Shown piece by piece: positions 587-41,840 of a stretch of DNA of 64,000 nucleotides. The DNA is from Candidatus Woesearchaeota archaeon (lineage in GTDB: Archaea > Nanobdellota > Nanobdellia > Woesearchaeales > JAGVYF01): positions 4,582 to 68,581 of the forward strand of contig JAHFLT010000005.1 of NCBI GenBank assembly GCA_023264635.1, written 5' to 3'. The notes under the pieces are model-generated. The model was not told the origin of the DNA, did no database searches, and saw nothing but the letters and a program-made list of their open reading frames with translations. Position 1 is the first letter of the stretch. Each line of letters starts with the position of its first letter. The translations under genes were made by a program, and so were the position numbers.

Positions 587-865
587 GTGTAGCATCAGCC
601 AAAAAGTGTATATAAATATATCGTAGAAGCCGTTGAAACGTCAGAATTTCACTCGTGTTTCACGAGTCAAGAGCATAGTGTATAGTACTACCTTCAGCTC
701 ATGGAATTCTGAATATGCTCAAAAAATGCAAAAGCATTTTTTTTTGGTTTTTGTGCAAGAAATCACTTATGCTTTCTTTGCAACCGAAGCATTAGCTGAG
801 GAACTTTTCAATAGCGAAATATCGTAACAACATTTAAAAACACGTTTATGTCCCACTGCGTCCAT

Positions 866-1093
866 GCGACAGTAGTCTAGTGGTAGGACGCTACCCTGCC
901 ACGGTAGCAACCCGGGTTCGAATAGGGTTTTGTGGTTAGAGGTTTGTGGCTTGAGGTAAAATGATCAGAGATTGTGGTTTGAGAATGAGGTTTGTGGTTG
1001 GAATACGACAAGCCTCGAACACCAGACTTTGATTAATAAAACCTCAAACTTCAAACTAAGAACATCAAATCAACGAAATTCCCGGCTGTCGCA
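866..1093 (+). tRNA. tRNA-Gly(GCC) interrupted by a ~157-nt intron (about 924..1080) in the T-loop/T-stem
   Basis: Acceptor 5' gcgacag (866-872) pairs perfectly with ctgtcgc (1086-1092), followed by discriminator a. D-arm is gtct/agtggta/ggac. Anticodon stem ctacc/ggtag has loop ctGCCac. T-stem 5' is ccggg with T-loop ttcgaat (917-923). The matching 3' T-stem cccgg appears only at 1081-1085. Exon ttcg can pair with intron-3' cgaa, giving a BHB-like helix. The 3' end is followed by a T-run. Confidence 0.75.
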
Positions 1094-1144
1094 TCTATTT
1101 TTTTTGTCAATTACGTTTAAATAATCAAGAACCATGATAAAGCC

Positions 1145-1462
1145 ATGTTCAATATAGGTACAGACATTGTCTTTATTCCCAAGATAAAAAAGATTCTCAC
1201 AGATAGTTCATTCCTCAACAGAGTCTTTCATGAAGATGAACGCACACCGTTTACAGCTGAGCACCTTGCTGGCATTTACGCTGCAAAGGAAGCTTTTTTT
1301 AAAGCGCTTGGAAAGGATCCATCTTGGCTGTCTGTCCACATCAAAGGCAAAGCACCACAATGTGTTCTCACACCGCAGCTTGCGCAAAAAATAAAGCACA
1401 CAAGCCTCAGCATAAGCCATGATAAAGAATATGCTATTGCGCAGGTGCTCGTAGAGCTATGA
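1145..1462 (+). CDS. acpS: Holo-[acyl-carrier-protein] synthase (4'-phosphopantetheinyl transferase, AcpS type)
   Basis: IGTDIVFI near the N-terminus, AAKEAFFKALG, and a C-terminal ISISHDKEYAIAQV match the AcpS signature. Size is about 105 aa. Its stop overlaps the start of the next gene (ATGA). Confidence 0.75.
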   Translation: MFNIGTDIVFIPKIKKILTDSSFLNRVFHEDERTPFTAEHLAGIYAAKEAFFKALGKDPSWLSVHIKGKAPQCVLTPQLAQKIKHTSLSISHDKEYAIAQVLVEL

Positions 1463-3831
1463 ACACTATCTTAGAGTTGATTGATAGCCTGAAGGAGAAA
1501 GAAGGGATAGCATTAACTTCTTTCAATGGATATCGACATTTTCATTACACCTACCAAGAACTCTACGACCTTGCCAGTAGGACAGCAGCTTTACTTGATC
1601 ATATAGGTATCAACAAAAAAGATGTTGTACTCATCTGGGGACCTAACCAGCCGGAGTGGGTAGCTGCTTTTTTAGCATGCATCATCCGAGGTGCGATTGC
1701 TGTACCGATAGATGTGCATAACAAACCAGATTTTGTTGAGAAAGTGCAAAAGCAGACAAAAGCGAAGCTGCTCATTACCAATACACCGCTATCCCAAATC
1801 AAGTCACTGTCCTTGAATAATCTCTTTTATGCATTACAATTTCCACCATCCCAACCAAGAGAATGCTTTGAAAAAGATATTGTTGAAATACTATACACAT
1901 CTGGCACAACAGGAGAACCAAAGGGAGTTGCGTTGTCACACAAGAATTTCTGCGCAAGCCTTTTGGCATTGCAGATGCTCATCAAGCCAGAGAAGCACAC
2001 AGTTCTCTCTGTGCTACCATTGAGCCACATTTTCGAACAAGTTATTGGCCTTCTGTTGCCATTACAATTTGGAGCAAGAATTATTTATTTACCTTCTCTT
2101 AAACCATCCCTTTTGCTTGACAGTATCAGGAAAGAACGTGTAACCATTCTGTTATTGATGCCGCGTATGATGGAACTTTTGCTGGTAGAGTTGCAGTGTT
2201 CTCCACTCTATTCTTTTTATTCATTGACAAAAACAGGGAAGCTGTTGTTAGCGCCTTCACTGCACTTCATTGTGGTGGGCGGCGCTCCACTGGACAATGA
2301 ACTTGAGCGTGCATGGGAAAAACTTGGTTTCGAGGTTCTGCAAGGATATGGCATGACAGAAACAACCGCCTTACTAACCTGTTTATTGCCAGAAGTTCAT
2401 GTGCATAACTCTGTTGGCAAAGCAGTGCCAGGTGTTGAACTTAAAGTGGAGAACGATGAGATTGTAGTGCGGGGGGATAATGTCTTTACTGCATACTACC
2501 GGAACAAGCAAAAAACAAGCGCTGCATTTTCTAAGGGATGGTTTAAGACCGGTGACATGGGAGAATGTGACTCTGCAGGATTCATATACATCAAAGGACG
2601 AAAAAAAGATATGATAAAAACAAGCTCGGGCTTCACTATTTATCCTGAAGATATAGAAGCTGTGCTGAAAAAATGCAGTGGCGTAAGAGATGCATGTGTA
2701 ATTGGCATTCCAACACGCAAAGGAGAAAAAGTTCATGCAGTCCTCTTACTTGAAAATGGAAATCCTGAAGAGGTTATCGCAGAAGCAAACAAACAGCTTG
2801 ATGAGATACAAAAAATTACAGATTATTCACTTTGGCCAGATCGAGATTTTCCCCGAACTCCTCTGCAGAAGGTGAAGAAAAATGTCGTTCTTGGTATTGT
2901 TCTTGGTATAACACCAAAAAGAATTGCAAAGACTCAGAGGGAAAGACTTCCCCCGCTCAAAGCAACGATTGCCCAACTGACAACGAAAAATATCTTGCCA
3001 AATGCACAGTTGAGAGACCTTGATTTTTCCTCGTTGGATAGAGTTGAACTTGCAACACGGTTAGAGCAGGAGTTTCTTACTGATGTTGATGAGAACGAAC
3101 TGCGCCCAGAGACAACAGTAGCTGATGTTGAGAAATTAATTCTCAAAGGAATACGAGAGAGAGAGGTGCATGTACGCCGCTGGACGCGCTGGAGTATTAT
3201 ACGTCTCATCCGTGTTGTCATCCAGCACTTTTTGTATATTGTAACAGCACTCTTGTGTAGGCGTGTTGTGAAGGGAAGAGAAAATGTCTCTGGAATACGG
3301 GGTCCTGTGATTTTTATTGCAAATCATGCAAGCCATCTTGATACGCCTGTCCTTCTTATGAGCTTGCCATTTTCATTGCGTGAAAAAATTACACCAGCTG
3401 CATGGGAAGAATATTTTTTTGAGGAACGGAAAGAGTGGTACTGGAAAGTGTATCAGTTATTTGCCTATAATTTTACAACTATATTCTGGAATGCCTTCAT
3501 GTTCCCGCAGACAAAAGGTTTCCGTAAGGCATTGCGTTATGCAGGAGAATTAGTGGATGATGGATGGAGCATTCTTGTTTTCCCTGAAGGTGCACGCACG
3601 ACAACCGGCAAGTTGTTGCCATTCAAGGAAGGGATTGGATTTTTGGCAAAAGAGCTGAAGATACCAATTGTGCCGATAAAGCTTGAAGGATTATTGCCTA
3701 TTTTACCCAGAGGAAAAATTATCCCTTCACCAGGAAAAGTGATGGTGAAAATAGGAAAGCCATTATCATTCACCACCGAATCTGTTGTTGAGATAACTAA
3801 GTATATCGAAGATGCTCTAAAGAGGTTGTGA
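1459..3831 (+). CDS. Fusion protein: AMP-dependent acyl-ACP/CoA synthetase, internal phosphopantetheine carrier domain, and PlsC-type 1-acyl-glycerol-3-phosphate acyltransferase (Aas-like, with a different domain order)
   Basis: AMP-binding motifs YTSGTTGEPKG, GWFKTGDMG and YIKGRKKDMIKTSSGFTIYPEDIE. Carrier motif LDFSSLDRVEL. Acyltransferase motifs HX4D (FIANHASHLD) and FPEGARTT. Confidence 0.8.
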   Translation: MNTILELIDSLKEKEGIALTSFNGYRHFHYTYQELYDLASRTAALLDHIGINKKDVVLIWGPNQPEWVAAFLACIIRGAIAVPIDVHNKPDFVEKVQKQTKAKLLITNTPLSQIKSLSLNNLFYALQFPPSQPRECFEKDIVEILYTSGTTGEPKGVALSHKNFCASLLALQMLIKPEKHTVLSVLPLSHIFEQVIGLLLPLQFGARIIYLPSLKPSLLLDSIRKERVTILLLMPRMMELLLVELQCSPLYSFYSLTKTGKLLLAPSLHFIVVGGAPLDNELERAWEKLGFEVLQGYGMTETTALLTCLLPEVHVHNSVGKAVPGVELKVENDEIVVRGDNVFTAYYRNKQKTSAAFSKGWFKTGDMGECDSAGFIYIKGRKKDMIKTSSGFTIYPEDIEAVLKKCSGVRDACVIGIPTRKGEKVHAVLLLENGNPEEVIAEANKQLDEIQKITDYSLWPDRDFPRTPLQKVKKNVVLGIVLGITPKRIAKTQRERLPPLKATIAQLTTKNILPNAQLRDLDFSSLDRVELATRLEQEFLTDVDENELRPETTVADVEKLILKGIREREVHVRRWTRWSIIRLIRVVIQHFLYIVTALLCRRVVKGRENVSGIRGPVIFIANHASHLDTPVLLMSLPFSLREKITPAAWEEYFFEERKEWYWKVYQLFAYNFTTIFWNAFMFPQTKGFRKALRYAGELVDDGWSILVFPEGARTTTGKLLPFKEGIGFLAKELKIPIVPIKLEGLLPILPRGKIIPSPGKVMVKIGKPLSFTTESVVEITKYIEDALKRL

Positions 3832-4079
3832 AGAAGGAATGCCGTCTTCAGGTAAAAATTTATAACCTCACCATATCCACTACCATTATGCCCCTAATTA
3901 TGCACAAACGCATTTCCATCATTCCTTATCAGGACTATACTCCATGGGGATATCTCTTTGAAACCGTTGCTTTGCAGGAACATCTCTTTCCCACCCTAAG
4001 TAAGTATGATTCCACAACATCCTATATTCTGATGAAAGACAAACAAAGCCACTACTATGTCTATATCAGTTTTTTATAA
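3828..4079 (+). CDS. Hypothetical small ORF with a GTG start and low-complexity sequence; doubtful
   Basis: ORF track only. No recognisable motifs. Confidence 0.15.
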   Translation: MKKECRLQVKIYNLTISTTIMPLIMHKRISIIPYQDYTPWGYLFETVALQEHLFPTLSKYDSTTSYILMKDKQSHYYVYISFL

Positions 4080-4124
4080 GTTTATGGCGCCAGTTTTTTA
4101 TAGCATTGACTATTTGTATGGAGC

Positions 4125-4814
4125 ATGCATTGTACGGTTGTAGATCTTGGCATAATCCCCTTTAGAGAGGCATTGGCACTGCAGGAGAAAATGTGTGCAT
4201 TACGTGCAGAGAATAAAATAGAAGATCACCTTCTCCTGCTTGAACACGATCCCATCATCACACTCGGCAGGAAAGCAACTAAAGAGATGTTTCGTGTTTC
4301 ACCCATCGAGATTCGCAAAATGGGCATTGACGTTATTGAAATAGATCGCGGAGGAAACATCACCTACCATGGCCCAGGACAACTAGTAGGATACCCTATT
4401 TTGAATTTCAGCAGACTTGTAGAGGAACAACAACTTACTGTGGAGAAATATATGATCATTCTCCGACGAATGCTGCTTGCTGTTTTACGTGATTTTGACA
4501 TTGATGCATGGCAGGAAGATGGCGGTGTATGGGTTGCCGAAGGAATAAAAATCGGAGCGACAGGCATTGCAATTAAATCATTCCCTTCTATGAAAGTCAC
4601 CAAGCACGGCTTTGCATTAGATGTGAACACCAATTTAGCTCATTTTGCGACCATCGCACCATGCGGGTACCCTAATGCAGAAGCTATTTCAATGCAGAAG
4701 ATTCTCCAGAAGAAAATTGATATGACTTATATTAAACAAAGCATCATCAACATATTTGGAGATGCATTTGGACATAGTTTAGAAGTGGGGAACAGAAAAG
4801 ATATGTTTATATAA
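4125..4814 (+). CDS. lipB: Octanoyltransferase (lipoyl/octanoyl-protein ligase B)
   Basis: LLLEHDPIITLGRKA and RGGNITYHGPGQLVGYPIL are the conserved LipB core. About 229 aa. Confidence 0.75.
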   Translation: MHCTVVDLGIIPFREALALQEKMCALRAENKIEDHLLLLEHDPIITLGRKATKEMFRVSPIEIRKMGIDVIEIDRGGNITYHGPGQLVGYPILNFSRLVEEQQLTVEKYMIILRRMLLAVLRDFDIDAWQEDGGVWVAEGIKIGATGIAIKSFPSMKVTKHGFALDVNTNLAHFATIAPCGYPNAEAISMQKILQKKIDMTYIKQSIINIFGDAFGHSLEVGNRKDMFI

Positions 4815-7595: not shown

Positions 7596-8348
7596 TTGCG
7601 CACAAAGCTTTTAAAGAAAACAAAACTATGCATTACCATGTTACTCTATATCCTTTTCAGTATAGCTATTGTTAGTCTTATTTCCCTTGTGGGGGTATTT
7701 TTTTTTTCTGGTTTCCTTGAGAGACATTTATTCCTTCTTGTCGGTTTTGCTACTGGTGCGTTGCTTGGTACAACATTTTTCGATATACTGCCTGAAACAA
7801 ATGAAACAAGCATTGTTTTAGTTGGTATATTAGTTTCTTTCCTCCTGGAAAAATTGTTTTGGCATCATCACCATCATTATGAAGAACACCATAAACACGT
7901 TCATCCTGCTGCTTATCTCAATCTCGTAGGAGATGGCATCCACAACTTTATTGACGGAACAATAATCACATCTGCTTATCTTACAAGTATACCACTTGGA
8001 GTAACAGTAACATTGGCCATCATCCTTCATGAAATTCCACAGGAGATAGGTGATTTCGGCATTCTTTTGGCAAGTGGTTTCACGAAAGAGAAAGCATTGT
8101 TCTATAACTTTCTTTCAGCGCTCACTGCATTTGCAGGTGGGTTACTCGTCTACTTCTTTTCATTTAGTATGAAAACACTTGCGCCTACATTACTCGCATT
8201 TGCTGCCGGTGGATTTTTATATATTACAAATGTAGATATGATGCCGGAGTTACATAAAGAAAAAGACACGAAAAAATCAATACAGCAAGTTATTTTTATT
8301 TTGTTAGGAATTGGAGTTATTTGGATTGGTGCTCAACACGGAAGGTGA
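7596..8348 (+). CDS. zupT: ZIP-family zinc/iron permease (ZupT-like)
   Basis: HNFIDG and LAIILHEIPQEIGDFGIL motifs, a His-rich loop HHHHHYEEHHKH, and multiple TM helices. An alternative start lies at M7638. Confidence 0.75.
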   Translation: MRTKLLKKTKLCITMLLYILFSIAIVSLISLVGVFFFSGFLERHLFLLVGFATGALLGTTFFDILPETNETSIVLVGILVSFLLEKLFWHHHHHYEEHHKHVHPAAYLNLVGDGIHNFIDGTIITSAYLTSIPLGVTVTLAIILHEIPQEIGDFGILLASGFTKEKALFYNFLSALTAFAGGLLVYFFSFSMKTLAPTLLAFAAGGFLYITNVDMMPELHKEKDTKKSIQQVIFILLGIGVIWIGAQHGR

Positions 8349-8422
8349 CTTTCTCACATCCACATCCTCATCTGTTAGTTTAAAGATGAGTGTTTCATTG
8401 GTCATTGATTTATTTCCCTCTT

Positions 8423-8670
8423 AAGTTTTTCCCAGGTTTTTTTCGCTGAGCCGAAGGTGAAGTCGAAAAAAAGCAGGTGTAAGTTGCAGCGAAACTGCCT
8501 ACTCTTTTCCCAGGTTCCAAAGAAATTCTTTTGGAATTTCTTGGACCAAGACGAGCTTTGCTCGTCTTTGGTTTTGGGAGTGAGCCGAAGGCGAACGAAC
8601 AAAAAGCTGAAATGGGCCCACCCGGATTTTCTACTGGGTATTCAGTCTTTGAACCGGGGACCTTCACCTT
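8423..8670. repeat. Expanded copy (A) of a repeated intergenic element: core motifs tttttcccagg, gctgagccgaagg, aaaaagctg and tttgaaccggg, with an internal partial duplication and two strong hairpins
   Basis: The same motifs in the same order as element B at 41526..41612. Hairpins are agaaattc-tttt-gaatttct (8521-8541) and ccaagacgagc-ttt-gctcgtctttgg (8546-8571), each followed by a T-run. A long-range 9-bp pairing aaggtgaag (8453-8461) with cttcacctt (8663-8671) also encloses part of the region. It lies in a 470-bp gap between convergent genes. Confidence 0.5.
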
Positions 8671-8821
8671 TCTTCAGCATATTTGTTTTATCTCTTTGTG
8701 CTATGTAAGGGTGACGTCATAGCCGCTAGACCATGGGCCCGAAACAGAACGGTATTTTTAAGAGATATAAAAGACTTTACCTACCTAATCCAAATCTTGC
8801 ACGCCTTGCGCCTTCGACGTT

Positions 8822-9556
8822 TTATTTTCTTTGTAATATCCCAAGAGACGCTCTAAAGAAGAAACATGCGTCGATACCATATCCACAGCCGTAACGATTA
8901 CCGCGACTAACAGGCATCAAAACATTTTCCGGTGGAAGATAAAGCCATGTATTCTGCCTAATTTCCTCGGGTAATATCGCATACGGACGAGACCAGAGCT
9001 TCTGGACTAGGAAGGGGTTTATTTCGTTCACACCTTTGGGGGTACTCCAATCAAGTAATGAGCCAATGGAATACACTTCCTCTCCCGCGTGTTTCAGTTT
9101 TCCTCCTTGCACTACATATTGATATCCATTCCACACTAGATTCTCCGGGTCGAGATAGCAGTGCAACATATTCTCTTCCTGCATTATCGCCATGCTTAGC
9201 CATTCTCCGTAACCATTGAGCATATTATCAGCAATTGCTTGCTGGTCTGGTTGTAGTGTCCCTTCCAGTCCTCTGCAGATAAGGTCAAATGCTTCTACTG
9301 GTCTGGGATGGCGCTCGTAGCCGCGTGCTCGCAATGCACGCAGACTGGCGTCATAGGTGTACAGTCTTTTCTCTTTTCCATCATAAACCGCTTTCTCTTC
9401 GAAAACAACATCAGATAGTGCTGACTTTATGGTAATCTCCTTTTTCTCATCGGGTTTGCCGATATCGAGATATGATTCAATGCCCATAAAGAGGGAGAGA
9501 TTGAGTGACATTAAAAAACTTACCTGCTGAGTAAGTTGAGTAAAAGCTGAGAACAT
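8822..9556 (-). CDS. Unknown-function paralog family, copy 1 (of 3)
   Basis: Shares GKPDEKKEITIKSALSDVVFE, YERHPRP.EAFDLICRGLEG, YGEWLSMA, LHCYLDPENL, VVQGGK.KHA and KLWSRPYAILPE with 19030..19695 and 19692..20369. Likely true start is MGIESYLDIGKPDEKK. About 170 nt are near-identical to copy 2. Confidence 0.5.
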   Translation of the reverse strand: MFSAFTQLTQQVSFLMSLNLSLFMGIESYLDIGKPDEKKEITIKSALSDVVFEEKAVYDGKEKRLYTYDASLRALRARGYERHPRPVEAFDLICRGLEGTLQPDQQAIADNMLNGYGEWLSMAIMQEENMLHCYLDPENLVWNGYQYVVQGGKLKHAGEEVYSIGSLLDWSTPKGVNEINPFLVQKLWSRPYAILPEEIRQNTWLYLPPENVLMPVSRGNRYGCGYGIDACFFFRASLGILQRK

Positions 9557-19029: not shown

Positions 19030-19695
19030 TTATGCTTGGGGCATTACCCCGCGAGAGACCTTGCAGTACCCTGTGCCGACATCATACCATTTATAGTAAC
19101 CACCGCGACTCATAAGCCACAAAACACTCTCTGGTGGAATCCACATCAATGCATTCTGCCTAATCTTTTCGGGTAGTATCGCATACGGGCGAGACCAGAG
19201 TTTCTCGACCAAAGTGGGGTTTATTTCGTTCATGGTTTTGGGGGTAAAGCAATCAGGAAATGAGCTAATTGAATACACTTCCTCTCTCGCGTGTTTTATT
19301 TTTCCTCCTTGTACAACATACCTCCACTCTTTCTTATCCCATAGGAGATTCTCCGGATCGAGATAACAATGCAACAAATTTCCTTTCCGCAACATTGCCA
19401 TGCTTAGCCATTCGCCATAACTATTCATCATATCATCAGCGATTGCTTGCTGTTCTGGAGATAATCTTCCTTCCAGTCCTCTGCAGATAAGGTCAAATGC
19501 TTCTGCTGGACGGGGGTGGCGCTCATAGCCGCGTTCTCTTAGTGCTTGTAAGCTGTCATTGAAAGTGTAGAGTTTTTTGTGTTGTCCTTCGTACACAGTT
19601 CTCGGTTCGAAAACAACATCTGATAGTGCTGACTTTAGGGTAATCTCTTTTTTCTCATCGGGTTTATTGAGGCCGAGATAGAAATCAATGCTCAT
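19030..19695 (-). CDS. Unknown-function paralog family, copy 3
   Basis: Shares the same conserved blocks as 8822..9556. About 80% nucleotide identity in the core, with a divergent C-terminal tail. Confidence 0.5.
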   Translation of the reverse strand: MSIDFYLGLNKPDEKKEITLKSALSDVVFEPRTVYEGQHKKLYTFNDSLQALRERGYERHPRPAEAFDLICRGLEGRLSPEQQAIADDMMNSYGEWLSMAMLRKGNLLHCYLDPENLLWDKKEWRYVVQGGKIKHAREEVYSISSFPDCFTPKTMNEINPTLVEKLWSRPYAILPEKIRQNALMWIPPESVLWLMSRGGYYKWYDVGTGYCKVSRGVMPQA

Positions 19696-20369
19696 CGTTG
19701 TCGTACCCCACGAGATGCACTGGTGATGTAGCTGGTGTCAACATCATACTTGGTGATGTAGTTATTGCTACTGACAGGACGCAAAGCATTTTCTGGTGGA
19801 AGCAAAATCCACGCATTCTGTCTTATCTCTTCAGGTAATAGTGCATAGTGACGAGACCAGAGCTTCTCCACTAAGGCTGGATTCGCATCGTTCATATATT
19901 TAATGTGAATCAACCCATGCAATGAGCCAATAGAGTACACTTCCTCTTCCGCGTGTTTCAGTTTTCCTCCTTGAACAATGTATTGATTTCCATTCCACAC
20001 CAGATTCTCCGGGTCAAGATAGCAATGCAACAGATTTCCTTTCCGCAGAATTGCCATGCTCAGCCATTCGCCATAACTATTCACCATATCGCCAGCAACT
20101 GCTTGCTGCTCTGGTTGCAGTCTCTCCTCCAGTCCTCTGCAGATAAAATCAAACGCTTCTACTGGTCTGGGATGGCGCTCGTAGCCGCGTGCTCGCAATG
20201 CACGCAGACTGGCGTCATAGGTGTACAGTCTTTTCTCTTTTCCATCATAAACCGCTTTCTCTTCGAAAACAACATCTGATAGTGCTGACTTTATGGTAAT
20301 CTCCTTTTTCTCATCTGGTTTGCCTAGTCCCTCGTACAGTTTTATCATGTTAATAGAGAATCCCAACAA
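19692..20369 (-). CDS. Unknown-function paralog family, copy 2 (tandem with copy 3)
   Basis: Same blocks. The 170 nt at 20151-20320 match 9291-9460 with 2 mismatches. Confidence 0.5.
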   Translation of the reverse strand: MLGFSINMIKLYEGLGKPDEKKEITIKSALSDVVFEEKAVYDGKEKRLYTYDASLRALRARGYERHPRPVEAFDFICRGLEERLQPEQQAVAGDMVNSYGEWLSMAILRKGNLLHCYLDPENLVWNGNQYIVQGGKLKHAEEEVYSIGSLHGLIHIKYMNDANPALVEKLWSRHYALLPEEIRQNAWILLPPENALRPVSSNNYITKYDVDTSYITSASRGVRQR

Positions 20370-31159: not shown

Positions 31160-31897
31160 TTATCTAATATTCTTTTCAATGAGCCAATACCCAATCCACG
31201 CACAAAGCGCGAAGAGTCCTGTAATCATAAGAAGCCAGAGCACAGATAACTGGGTAGAGAGCAGCAGTGAGAAGATTAATACAGTTGAAAAGAATGCAAC
31301 ATAATCAGTTCGAGATGCGAAGAAAAGATGCAACCCATCAGCTGTTGGCACTGGTAACGACATGGCTATGGCTATCATGAGATTAATGATCGCGAGGTCT
31401 TGTACTAATGCTAGATGTATAAAATTCCAGATGAGCCTAAGTACCAATGCAAACACCAAATTGGTTACGGAACCAACAACAGCAGTCCAACCAAGATGAT
31501 AAAATCTGAATCCCGGTCTGCGTCCAAAACGTAGTTCCTGGACAGGGTCCATTTGTATTGAGCCATAAAGAGGCAAGACCAAATAGCCAGCAGTTATAAA
31601 ACAAAGGACAAGGGAAACAATAAGAGACGGAATTTCTACAGACCACTTAACAGTATAACCCATGTAAAGACCAGATATCTTCTGGCTGAACAAATGGGTA
31701 GCGACAGCAAGCAGGGAGAGCAGAGAAGCTACTGCCATAGCCATAAGACCTGCTGAAATATCTGGAGTTCCTTCACCCCATTTGCGAAAAGAGAACATGA
31801 AACCTAAAAACAGAGCAGCAACAAGTAATCCATACCACTCCTTCTCAGAGAGAGAGAGATGTTTTCTGAACATATGTCTCCTCTGAGATTTCCACAC
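31160..31897 (-). CDS. M50-like polytopic membrane protein lacking the HExxH zinc motif
   Basis: LPVPTADGLHLFF resembles the M50 LDG region, but no HExxH is found. 6 or more TM helices. Confidence 0.4.
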   Translation of the reverse strand: MWKSQRRHMFRKHLSLSEKEWYGLLVAALFLGFMFSFRKWGEGTPDISAGLMAMAVASLLSLLAVATHLFSQKISGLYMGYTVKWSVEIPSLIVSLVLCFITAGYLVLPLYGSIQMDPVQELRFGRRPGFRFYHLGWTAVVGSVTNLVFALVLRLIWNFIHLALVQDLAIINLMIAIAMSLPVPTADGLHLFFASRTDYVAFFSTVLIFSLLLSTQLSVLWLLMITGLFALCAWIGYWLIEKNIR

Positions 31898-31949
31898 TTT
31901 TAAAGGTATGGCGAAATCTTTATAAACACGGCACTATGTTCAGGTACTT

Positions 31950-32060
31950 GGACGGTCATAGGGGCTTGGTTCACCCGATCCCATTCCGAACTCGGACGTT
32001 AAGCAAGCCTCCGTACCGGTAAGTACTTTACTCAGTAGGGGAAAGCTGGTAAGCTGTCCA
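31950..32060 (+). rRNA. rrf: 5S ribosomal RNA
   Basis: CACCCGATCCCATTCCGAACTCGGACGTTAAGC matches the universal 5S loop B/helix III/loop C core. Terminal helix I is ggacgg...ctgtcc. TATA-like tttataaa about 25 nt upstream. No 16S/23S adjacent. Confidence 0.75.
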
Positions 32061-32174
32061 CTCACATTCTCCCTTTACTACATTCTCCCGTAAGCATATT
32101 CTTCACTCAGCTATTCTTCCACAACTTACACAAAGATTAAATAATGCTGTGCACTGCCCGAGTAACACTTACCT

Positions 32175-41424: not shown

Positions 41425-41525
41425 TGTTAACTATAGTTAATTATTGTTTTTATATAATTCTTTCGATAGAGATTGTAACGCCGCGGCCCGGACTTTCACC
41501 AGCCGACTCTTGTGACGAAGTCACC

Positions 41526-41612
41526 TAGTTTTTCCCAGGTTTTTGGTAGCTGAGCCGAAGGACAAAGTCCTGAAGGCGAAGCGGACAAAAAGCTGTTTTG
41601 AACCGGGAGATC
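41526..41612. repeat. Compact copy (B) of the repeated intergenic element; it lies inside a ~240-nt region whose ends can pair GCCGCGG (41479) with CCGCGGC (41712)
   Basis: tttttcccaggtttttggtagctgagccgaaggacaaagtcctgaaggcgaagcggacaaaaagctgttttgaaccggga. Includes the local hairpin aggac-aaa-gtcct. Sits in a 400-bp gap. Confidence 0.5.
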
Positions 41613-41840
41613 CCTTGCGGGAAACGAGATAATCGCGAGAAGACACTCTCACTGATTGCGATGCATTCTCAAATGTCTGCAGATAGCAATCTCGCGCAGT
41701 ACCAGGTTGTGCCACCGCGGCATCTGTGAAACGATAAAGAGTTTTTATATAAATCTTTGGTGAATCTGTGAACTACATAATACAACAGCAAAGAATCAAC
41801 CCGAAAAGTATTAAATAGGCACTTGTTTTACCTTTTTCGC

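Follow-up and report, generated by a model that had tools for sequence, protein, structure and literature searches.

A 157-nucleotide intron with bulge-helix-bulge features at position 59/60 in the T-loop of a tRNA-Gly(GCC) gene from a Woesearchaeota-like archaeon

A tRNA-Gly(GCC) gene lies at positions 866 to 1093 on the forward strand of a 64-kb stretch of the Candidatus Woesearchaeota contig JAHFLT010000005.1 (assembly GCA_023264635.1; this whole stretch is called the window here) and is interrupted within its T-loop by an intron of 157 nucleotides (nt). Direct reading and in-silico splicing place tRNA positions 1-59 in the 5' exon (866..922, +) and positions 60-73 in the 3' exon (1080..1093, +; T60, CCCGG, CTGTCGC and A73), and together with folding they place the intron (923..1079, +) at tRNA position 59/60. 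The exons give a 7-bp acceptor stem (GCGACAG at 866-872 with CTGTCGC at 1086-1092), a D-arm wholly in the 5' exon (GTCT/AGTGGTA/GGAC), an anticodon arm (CTACC/CTGCCAC/GGTAG) whose loop CTGCCAC presents the anticodon GCC, a variable loop CAAC, a T-stem (CCGGG at 912-916 with CCCGG at 1081-1085) and a T-loop composed of TTCGAA (917-922) and T1080; the discriminator is A1093 (A73) and CCA is not encoded. Deletion of 923-1079 left 71 nt, which ARAGORN called as a perfect tRNA-Gly(gcc) with a complete cloverleaf with all four arms, so that a preliminary description of this DNA, which had claimed a tRNA-Gly(GCC) split in the T-loop by an intron of about 157 nt and a perfect cloverleaf (7-bp acceptor, GCC anticodon and T-arm), is borne out on both counts. 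The first acceptor pairs of the spliced molecule (G1-C72, C2-G71 and G3-C70) and A73 are consistent with an archaeal tRNA-Gly. The spliced tRNA has the same length as the intron-less orthologue at two related loci (L004/L005; Rfam 67.1 bits) and differs from it only in one compensated anticodon-stem pair and at T-loop position 55.

The unspliced gene was not called by ARAGORN in the raw window and scored 24.4 bits against the 29-bit Rfam tRNA threshold; the check by ARAGORN that had been proposed for this locus fails on the raw gene and succeeds on the spliced sequence. The Logan assembly record SRR14366766 is identical to the window over 780-1150 and was separately produced, though it may share reads with it. 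Removal of 924-1080 instead of 923-1079 yields an identical product, and hence the sequence alone is compatible with a site at either 59/60 or 60/61; the site is set to 59/60 because this is the one selected by the geometry of the splice motif described next.

Unconstrained minimum free energy (MFE) folds of the whole precursor and of the T-arm plus intron alike contained a motif of the bulge-helix-bulge (BHB) type, in which the exon strand U54-G57 (TTCG, 917..920, +) forms a 4-bp central helix with the CGAA strand near the 3' end of the intron (1074..1077, +), that is U917-U918-C919-G920 with C1074-G1075-A1076-A1077. This is the pairing that the preliminary description had foreseen, and the folding of the exon-intron junctions that it recommended thus recovered a BHB without constraint, strict at the 3' junction and relaxed at the 5' one. 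The order of elements is the 5-bp T-stem, a 3-nt bulge (A1078-U1079-U1080), the 4-bp helix, a 5 x 2 internal loop (A921-A922-U923-A924-G925 opposite A1072-A1073) and a long hairpin. The 5' bulge consists of A58 and A59 (921-922) and the first intron nucleotide (923), and the 3' bulge of the last two intron nucleotides (1078-1079) and U60; cuts are therefore predicted after 922 (position 59) and after 1079. The 3' splice site is strict, being a canonical 3-nt bulge between two helices, and position 59/60 of a 7-nt T-loop is the exact structural equivalent of the canonical position 37/38 of a 7-nt anticodon loop.

Orthologous loci were fetched by way of the neighbouring protein, and metagenome contigs were scanned with a DNA pattern built from the exons. 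Syntenic orthologues, upstream of AcpS and of a 790-amino-acid acyl-synthetase fusion protein as in the window, were found at L004/L005, L001 and L003, and the pattern matched three Joint Genome Institute (JGI) metagenome contigs and no viral contig; L006, L007 and L008, obtained through the metagenome pattern, carry a tRNA-Gly(GCC) with these exons, and for them a shared neighbourhood was not established. Synteny with tRNA-Gly was lost around more distant homologues of the 790-amino-acid protein (P0006 and P0024). The syntenic tRNA-Gly(GCC) gene of L004 and L005 (which are the same in this respect) has no intron, that of L001 has 19 nt at position 29/30 and 154 nt at 59/60, and that of L003 has 31 nt at 29/30 and 110 nt at 59/60, while at 59/60 the L007 and L008 genes have 34 nt and the L006 gene 151 nt. 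In their spliced form the exons of L001 and L003 do not differ from the intron-less gene of L004, which means that the intron has come or gone recently. The anticodon stem varies over the whole set in a compensatory way (CUACC/GGUAG, CCACC/GGUGG and CGUCC/GGACG). Unconstrained folds of the T-arm plus intron gave the BHB in four of the five tRNA-Gly segments (window, L001, L006 and L007), and in the fifth (L003, with one C.A mismatch) a fold with the BHB forced was equally good (-51.1 versus -50.4 kcal/mol).

When the BHB cores of 11 T-loop introns from this clade were aligned, 92.5% of the cells of the central helix were paired, and both sides had changed in two of the four base pairs (G57-C to A57-U, and U55-A to C55-G); the observed covariation was reached by none of 500 shuffles, and it collapsed when the register was slid. 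The compensatory changes in the anticodon stem and in the BHB helix therefore indicate a live gene rather than a pseudogene.

Two further observations concern the tRNA-Gly relatives. The 29/30 introns (L001 2471-2489, 19 nt; L003 183-213, 31 nt) have a BHB helix of about 3 bp, as judged by eye. The T-loop of the L001, L003 and L004/L005 genes reads UCCGAAU, with C at U55, the pseudouridine position, where the window has the normal UUCGAAU; the partner of C55 is G in the L001 intron, giving a C-G pair, and A in that of L003, giving a mismatch.

The body of the window intron consists of a G/U-rich 5' arm (925..1003, +) with four copies of a 12-16 nt unit (GAGGTTTGTGGYTNGA / TTGTGGYTNGAG), followed by an apical loop and an A/C-rich 3' arm (1004..1073, +) with AAACYTC repeats at 1039-1057, as delimited by repeat and fold analysis. 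Within the 5' arm TTGTGGYTNGAG occurs four times, starting at 930, 944, 972 and 992, and two exact copies of GGTTTGTGG stand at 941-949 and 989-997, with a third, one mismatch away, at 927-935; AAACTTC is repeated 2.7 times in the 3' arm. The 5' arm (G31 U30 A17 C2) is 76% G+U with only two C, and the 3' arm (A35 C19 U14 G7) is 72% A+C. Folded alone, the intron reached -49.9 kcal/mol compared with -30.5 +/- 3.7 for shuffled sequences (z = -5.3; 0 of 200 shuffles as stable); repeats and fold agree with the earlier claims that repeat units recur at least three times in the 5' half and that the 3' half is its approximate reverse complement, forming a long imperfect hairpin. The antisense strand of the intron reached -32.8 kcal/mol, 17 kcal/mol worse than the sense strand, and the hairpin is therefore an RNA-level feature of the sense strand; G.U pairs make up 9 of the 54 pairs (17%), and forbidding them raised the energy to -33.2.

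No Rfam family matched the intron at E<=10 (700-1250 scanned), BLAST found no second copy of it in the window or the fetched loci, and in a global alignment of five tRNA-Gly introns it had no credible similarity to the other four, so that these searches yielded neither a function nor a relative for the hairpin body. Several candidate identities were tried and rejected: a box C/D guide RNA (no C/D family at E<=10, and by inspection only AUGAUCA at 961-967 with no CUGA partner), an H/ACA RNA (neither a kink-turn (K-turn) nor an H/ACA-style pocket was seen by inspection), a nested BHB within the body, a group I intron (no Intron_gpI or other intron family at E<=10 in 700-1250) and a remnant of a miniature inverted-repeat transposable element (MITE) or insertion sequence (no DNA-level terminal inverted repeats, no other copy, arms that pair through G.U and a poorer antisense fold). 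A small open reading frame (ORF) at 972-1124 (TTG start, 50 amino acids) was taken as spurious, and the CGAA(A)T likeness of the intron ends is that of the BHB helix partner and not a direct-repeat duplication. The body is not a conserved functional RNA and appears free of constraint apart from the need to fold; its GU-rich arm probably arose by local duplication of the 12-16 nt unit while the partner arm changed to match, as a lineage-specific expansion of a simple hairpin.

The 59/60 site is also occupied in other tRNA genes of the window and its relatives, which were sought with our own insertion-tolerant scan for pairing of the acceptor stem and of the T-arm; in a BLAST comparison the relatives' introns matched the window in two places. 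A tRNA-Val(UAC) gene (8613-8740, -) is interrupted twice, by a canonical intron of 34 nt (8670-8703) and by one of 21 nt at 59/60 (8627-8647) with one A.A mismatch in the central BHB helix, and its spliced 73 nt are called tRNA-Val(tac) by ARAGORN. A tRNA-Ser(GCU) gene with a long variable arm (41479-41721, -) has a 53-nt 37/38 intron (41631-41683) and a 104-nt 59/60 intron (41493-41596); its T-arm plus intron forms the BHB in an unconstrained fold and its spliced 86 nt are called tRNA-Ser(gct). A scan of the window for GC peaks revealed no hidden tRNA gene beyond these three. All three were missed by ARAGORN and by Rfam, even in a permissive, below-threshold search, because of their T-loop introns, and ARAGORN calls only the intron-less tRNA genes of the clade; tRNAscan-SE does look for non-canonical introns, so the miss concerns ARAGORN and Rfam. 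The scan further revealed 59/60 introns in tRNA-Val(UAC) of L005 (21 nt), tRNA-Val(GAC) of L007 (152 nt), tRNA-Glu(UUC) of L008 (87 nt) and tRNA-Ile(UAU) of L008 (1446-1565, -; 21 nt, plus a canonical intron), so that the site is filled in 11 of the 13 tRNA genes seen in the clade loci and in 3 of the 3 in the window. A tRNA-Ile(UAU) is also found in ARMAN-type DPANN archaea and may replace the usual archaeal decoding of AUA (PMC3239211). Separately, L010 1692-2095 (-) combines a T-arm that is intact with acceptor strands that pair perfectly (GCCGGCG/CGCCGGC); between them lie some 330 nt of low-complexity, very AT-rich sequence and then D and anticodon regions resembling those of tRNA-Ser, and the locus may be a tRNA whose intron is giant or sits at an early position.

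Introns at 59/60 range from 21 to 157 nt. The minimal one, in L005 tRNA-Val (21 nt; ACAGC-UUUUU-GCUG-C-UGAA-AG), is just a hairpin plus the BHB strand, and it belongs to an ACAGC...GCTGNTGAAAG family that includes the introns of the window tRNA-Ser and of L001 and L003 tRNA-Gly, which have the ends of the L005 intron and extra hairpin modules inside the loop. The first of these modules (CAGC-T5-7, a GC-rich hairpin and A5-7-CCTGGGAAAAAC) also occurs outside introns, in the window at 8425-8612 (-) and in L001 at 1995-2070 (+); these extra-intronic modules (one full, one partial) lie directly 3' of tRNA-Val and upstream of a small ORF, and they may be a source of intron modules, decayed intron copies, or a terminator or 5' untranslated region (5'-UTR) element. 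A second family (AYAGATCTYTGC...) comprises introns of tRNA-Gly (L006 and L007) and of tRNA-Val(GAC), with an inner module common to L006 tRNA-Gly and L007 tRNA-Val(GAC) at 87% identity (BLAST); the L008 tRNA-Glu intron is placed in it through similar end sequences only, read by eye. The window tRNA-Gly intron is in neither family.

Only the BHB strand and a foldable body seem to be under constraint in these introns. The T-loop would be a favoured site in that an intron ending in YGAA-NN can build the central helix in any tRNA, and the same intron would be workable in any tRNA because the exon half, UUCR-AA, is nearly universal among them. Introns may move between tRNA genes, to judge from the shared sequences. 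A bolder proposal, possible yet doubtful, is that 59/60 is a universal docking site for mobile families of BHB introns, which have grown from 21 to 157 nt by accretion of hairpins, with the window tRNA-Gly intron as the most derived product; if true, this lineage would be a natural system for the spread of protein-spliced introns, whether the route is reverse splicing with reverse transcription or recombination at the DNA level.

The host belongs to the DPANN archaea and is Woesearchaeota-like: genes for SRP54 and an archaeal LonB protease are present in the window, and the neighbours of the tRNA-Gly gene, AcpS and the 790-amino-acid fusion (AMP-binding/acyl carrier protein (ACP)/acyltransferase), have their closest named relatives in Candidatus Woesearchaeota and Pacearchaeota. 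Among the contigs of GTDB species representatives the exon pattern had one match, in the groundwater Woesearchaeota metagenome-assembled genome JACQSS01, where the gene is intron-less. Upstream of the tRNA-Gly gene, 26-33 nt from the 5' end of the tRNA, lies a TATA-like box, TTTAAAAA (833..840, +), which is found at an equal distance upstream of the orthologous gene in L004, L001, L003 and L007 (five loci with the window); going by established promoter architecture, TTTAAAAA is probably an archaeal TATA box. Downstream, a T8 run (1098..1105, +) noted by direct reading is a likely transcription terminator, given the known oligo-T termination of archaea. The promoter box, the T8 run and the absence of an encoded CCA would together fit an archaeal tRNA transcription unit.

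Taken together, the spliced cloverleaf, the BHB and its covariation make it very probable that the DPANN archaeon has at 866-1093 (+) a tRNA-Gly(GCC) gene that is functional and expressed, with a 157-nt protein-spliced BHB intron at 59/60. In the folded precursor the T-stem is the outer helix and U54-G57 with the CGAA of the intron 3' end the central helix, the remaining intron providing the inner helix and the long hairpin. From established archaeal biology, the splicing endonuclease EndA would cut each bulge behind its second nucleotide to leave 2',3'-cyclic phosphate and 5'-OH ends, and RtcB would join the exons into the 71-nt tRNA, with the intron probably circularised and CCA added post-transcriptionally.

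Some observations pull the other way. The 5' splice site is relaxed to the 5 x 2 internal loop, with A.A and G.A oppositions before the inner helix, and cleavage there would depend on the tolerance of the enzyme. No EndA gene was found in the 64-kb window (Pfam on 30 ORFs, tblastn and a PDB sequence search); tblastn with an M. jannaschii EndA query gave a weak match at 31214-31426 (E = 0.25), without support from Pfam or the PDB search, and RtcB was likewise not found among the window ORFs tested. The BHB-core alignment was built on the assumed 59/60 register, which favours structure. The intron body is without a homologue in the window or the fetched loci, leaving the hairpin and the repeats without comparative support, the closest relative found has only 60% protein identity in the neighbouring gene, and an intact second tRNA-Gly(GCC) may lie outside the window.

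The preliminary description held that the intron implies a splicing endonuclease of relaxed BHB specificity, and this stands for the loosened 5' site and not for the 3' site, which is canonical. The literature is divided on the point, since typical alpha4 endonucleases cut a strict BHB at the canonical position only (PMC3239211), whereas DPANN alpha4 enzymes with an extra 'L3' loop have been linked to heavy disruption of tRNA genes, in lineages including Woesearchaeota and Pacearchaeota (PMC5829648); in these DPANN lineages disrupted tRNA genes are also numerous, and the tRNA sets predicted for them are incomplete (Kaneta et al. 2018, PMC5829648). The 59/60 intron thus does point to a splicing endonuclease of probably broad specificity.

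Could the gene instead be dead, a tRNA pseudogene in which the 157 nt inserted are never taken out? Its lack of recognition by ARAGORN and Rfam and the intron-less orthologue in a relative would suit such a history, which is nevertheless very improbable, as the exons, promoter box and terminator are intact, the exon stems have changed in a compensatory manner, the insert supplies a 4-nt complement of the T-loop in the exact BHB register with 3-nt bulges, and the genes occupied at this site, 11 of the 13 seen in the clade and all those of the window among them, cannot all be dead. That the intron is removed by other means, as a self-splicing group I or II intron or by joining in trans of separate halves like the split tRNAs of Nanoarchaeum, is scarcely credible: no Rfam intron family matched at E<=10, 157 nt is short for a group I intron, and the BHB explains both junctions. 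Group I introns are known from bacterial tRNA genes and from those of some archaea (PMC6125680, PMC13011429). Related introns in the clade open with a T5-T6 run that could end transcription after the 5' exon, but the window tRNA-Gly intron has no T run longer than 4, no TATA-like box was seen upstream of its 3' exon by inspection, and the two halves are adjacent on the same strand.

Other alternatives concern the 157 nt themselves. The body may descend from a small hairpin element, mobile or repetitive, which inserted into an existing short T-loop intron or into the T-loop itself and is tolerated because formation of the BHB is not prevented; such a history bears on where the 157 nt came from and does not conflict with splicing, and we regard it as unlikely while giving it some weight. 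The wide length range at one site, the build of the long introns of one family (the 21-nt L005 intron with hairpin modules in its loop), the module copies outside introns 3' of tRNA-Val and the inner module held in common by a tRNA-Gly and a tRNA-Val(GAC) intron would all be expected of such an element, but the window intron itself has neither a second copy in the window or fetched loci nor a likeness to the other families, its lack of DNA-level terminal inverted repeats, its G.U pairing and its poorer antisense fold do not suit one, and its internal tandem units of 12-16 nt point to local duplication rather than a discrete insertion. It is improbable, too, that the excised intron is a functional RNA, circular or hairpin, which acts as a guide, decoy or protein platform through its GAGGUUUGUGG repeats. 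Its fold is strong, strand-specific and at the RNA level, one sequence unit is present four times on one arm, and intron-encoded RNAs have a precedent in the box C/D guide of archaeal tRNA-Trp introns (PMC4090602); against this, the Rfam search and the inspection for a box C/D pair, K-turn or H/ACA-style pocket described above gave nothing, and complementarity of the intron to the rest of the window was not significant (best E = 0.33). In relatives, moreover, the bodies of the introns at this site are unrelated or the introns measure no more than 21-34 nt, and L004/L005 have none; there is therefore no conserved trans-acting function tied to the site.

With the protein-spliced BHB intron as the preferred reading, its nearest counterparts are those of ARMAN-2 (Ca. 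Micrarchaeum, DPANN), in which 59/60 introns occur in pre-tRNA-Cys(GCA) and pre-tRNA-Pro(GGG), and in which the 13-nt 59/60 intron of pre-tRNA-Cys was cut in vitro by the ARMAN-2 endonuclease (Fujishima et al. 2011, PMC3239211). A DPANN host, the 59/60 position in the T-loop and a BHB or relaxed BHB between T-arm and intron are common to both (PMC3239211); the differences are that the intron here has 157 nt instead of 13, is a repeat-built hairpin in a Woesearchaeota-like host, and that 59/60 is occupied in nearly every tRNA gene seen. The ARMAN-2 enzyme is of the epsilon2 type. The preliminary description had called introns of this position and length rare: the exact site is already listed, 59/60 and 29/30 both being among the known non-canonical sites in a 2014 review (PMC4090602), and it is cut in vitro in ARMAN-2 (PMC3239211), while the length of 157 nt does lie beyond the 11-129 nt range (medians 12-25 nt) of that review.

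Going by summaries of the Thermoproteales work (Sugahara 2008 and Fujishima 2010, via PMC4090602 and PMC8450103), those archaea resemble this clade in having many disrupted tRNA genes, some with two introns, in using 59/60 and 29/30 among their sites, and in sharing intron sequences between different tRNA genes, which is read there as transposition. The Thermoproteales introns are spread over many positions and are mostly 12-25 nt, whereas the non-canonical introns seen in this clade are concentrated at 59/60, with two at 29/30, and reach 104-157 nt through added hairpin modules. The canonical 37/38 helix-bulge-helix-bulge-helix motif (strict hBHBh'; Marck and Grosjean 2003, cited in PMC4090602) is likewise matched in its 5-bp stem, its 7-nt loop, which the intron interrupts behind nucleotide six, the pairing of the first four loop nucleotides with the intron 3' end and the two 3-nt bulges flanking a 4-bp helix; the window intron departs from it in its T-arm site, in the 5' bulge widened to a 5 x 2 loop and in its 157 nt compared with medians of 12-25 nt. 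The euryarchaeal tRNA-Trp intron with a box C/D guide (PMC4090602) is similar in its unusually long, structured body, unlike which the window intron lacks C/D boxes, a K-turn and conservation of the body, and the tRNA-Trp site is 37/38.

The kind of element, the 59/60 site and its occurrence and splicing in DPANN archaea are thus already known, and neither a new kind of intron nor a new splicing mechanism is revealed. Unmatched in the literature searched are the Woesearchaeota-like host, the length of 157 nt (with relatives of 151-154 nt), the repeat-built GU/AC hairpin and the near-saturation of one non-canonical site. The significance lies mostly in the lineage-wide pattern and its consequences for annotation, and less in the single tRNA-Gly locus. 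The 59/60 class is extended to a Woesearchaeota-like lineage and its length range beyond 11-129 nt, in a clade where intron families common to different tRNAs fill one non-canonical site in most of the tRNA genes; gain, loss and enlargement of BHB introns thereby become directly testable by comparative genomics and circular RNA sequencing (circRNA-seq). Annotation and completeness estimates of DPANN genomes by tools such as ARAGORN and Rfam will under-count tRNAs, a gap noted in PMC5829648.

Several features elsewhere in the window were noted in passing. A bacterial-looking lipid/lipoate cluster at 1145-4814 comprises AcpS, the 790-amino-acid fusion and a LipB-like octanoyltransferase; the fusion shares 38-41% identity with proteins from Omnitrophota and Geobacter relatives, a likeness that suggests inter-domain transfer. 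A 5S rRNA gene (31948-32062, +; 70 bits) stands alone, and the 64 kb contain neither 16S nor 23S rRNA. Two identical copies of a GC-rich segment of 35 nt, GGTCTGGGATGGCGCTCGTAGCCGCGTGCTCGCAA, occur at 9300-9334 and 20164-20198 within the minus-strand ORFs 8822-9556 and 19692-20369, which are probably paralogous. Lastly, 8307-8405 (-) holds a 33-codon remnant (MTNETLIFKLTDEDVDV...) whose N-terminus is homologous to a 106-amino-acid ORF of L001 (2095-2415); it looks truncated and overlaps the end of a ZIP-transporter gene on the opposite strand.

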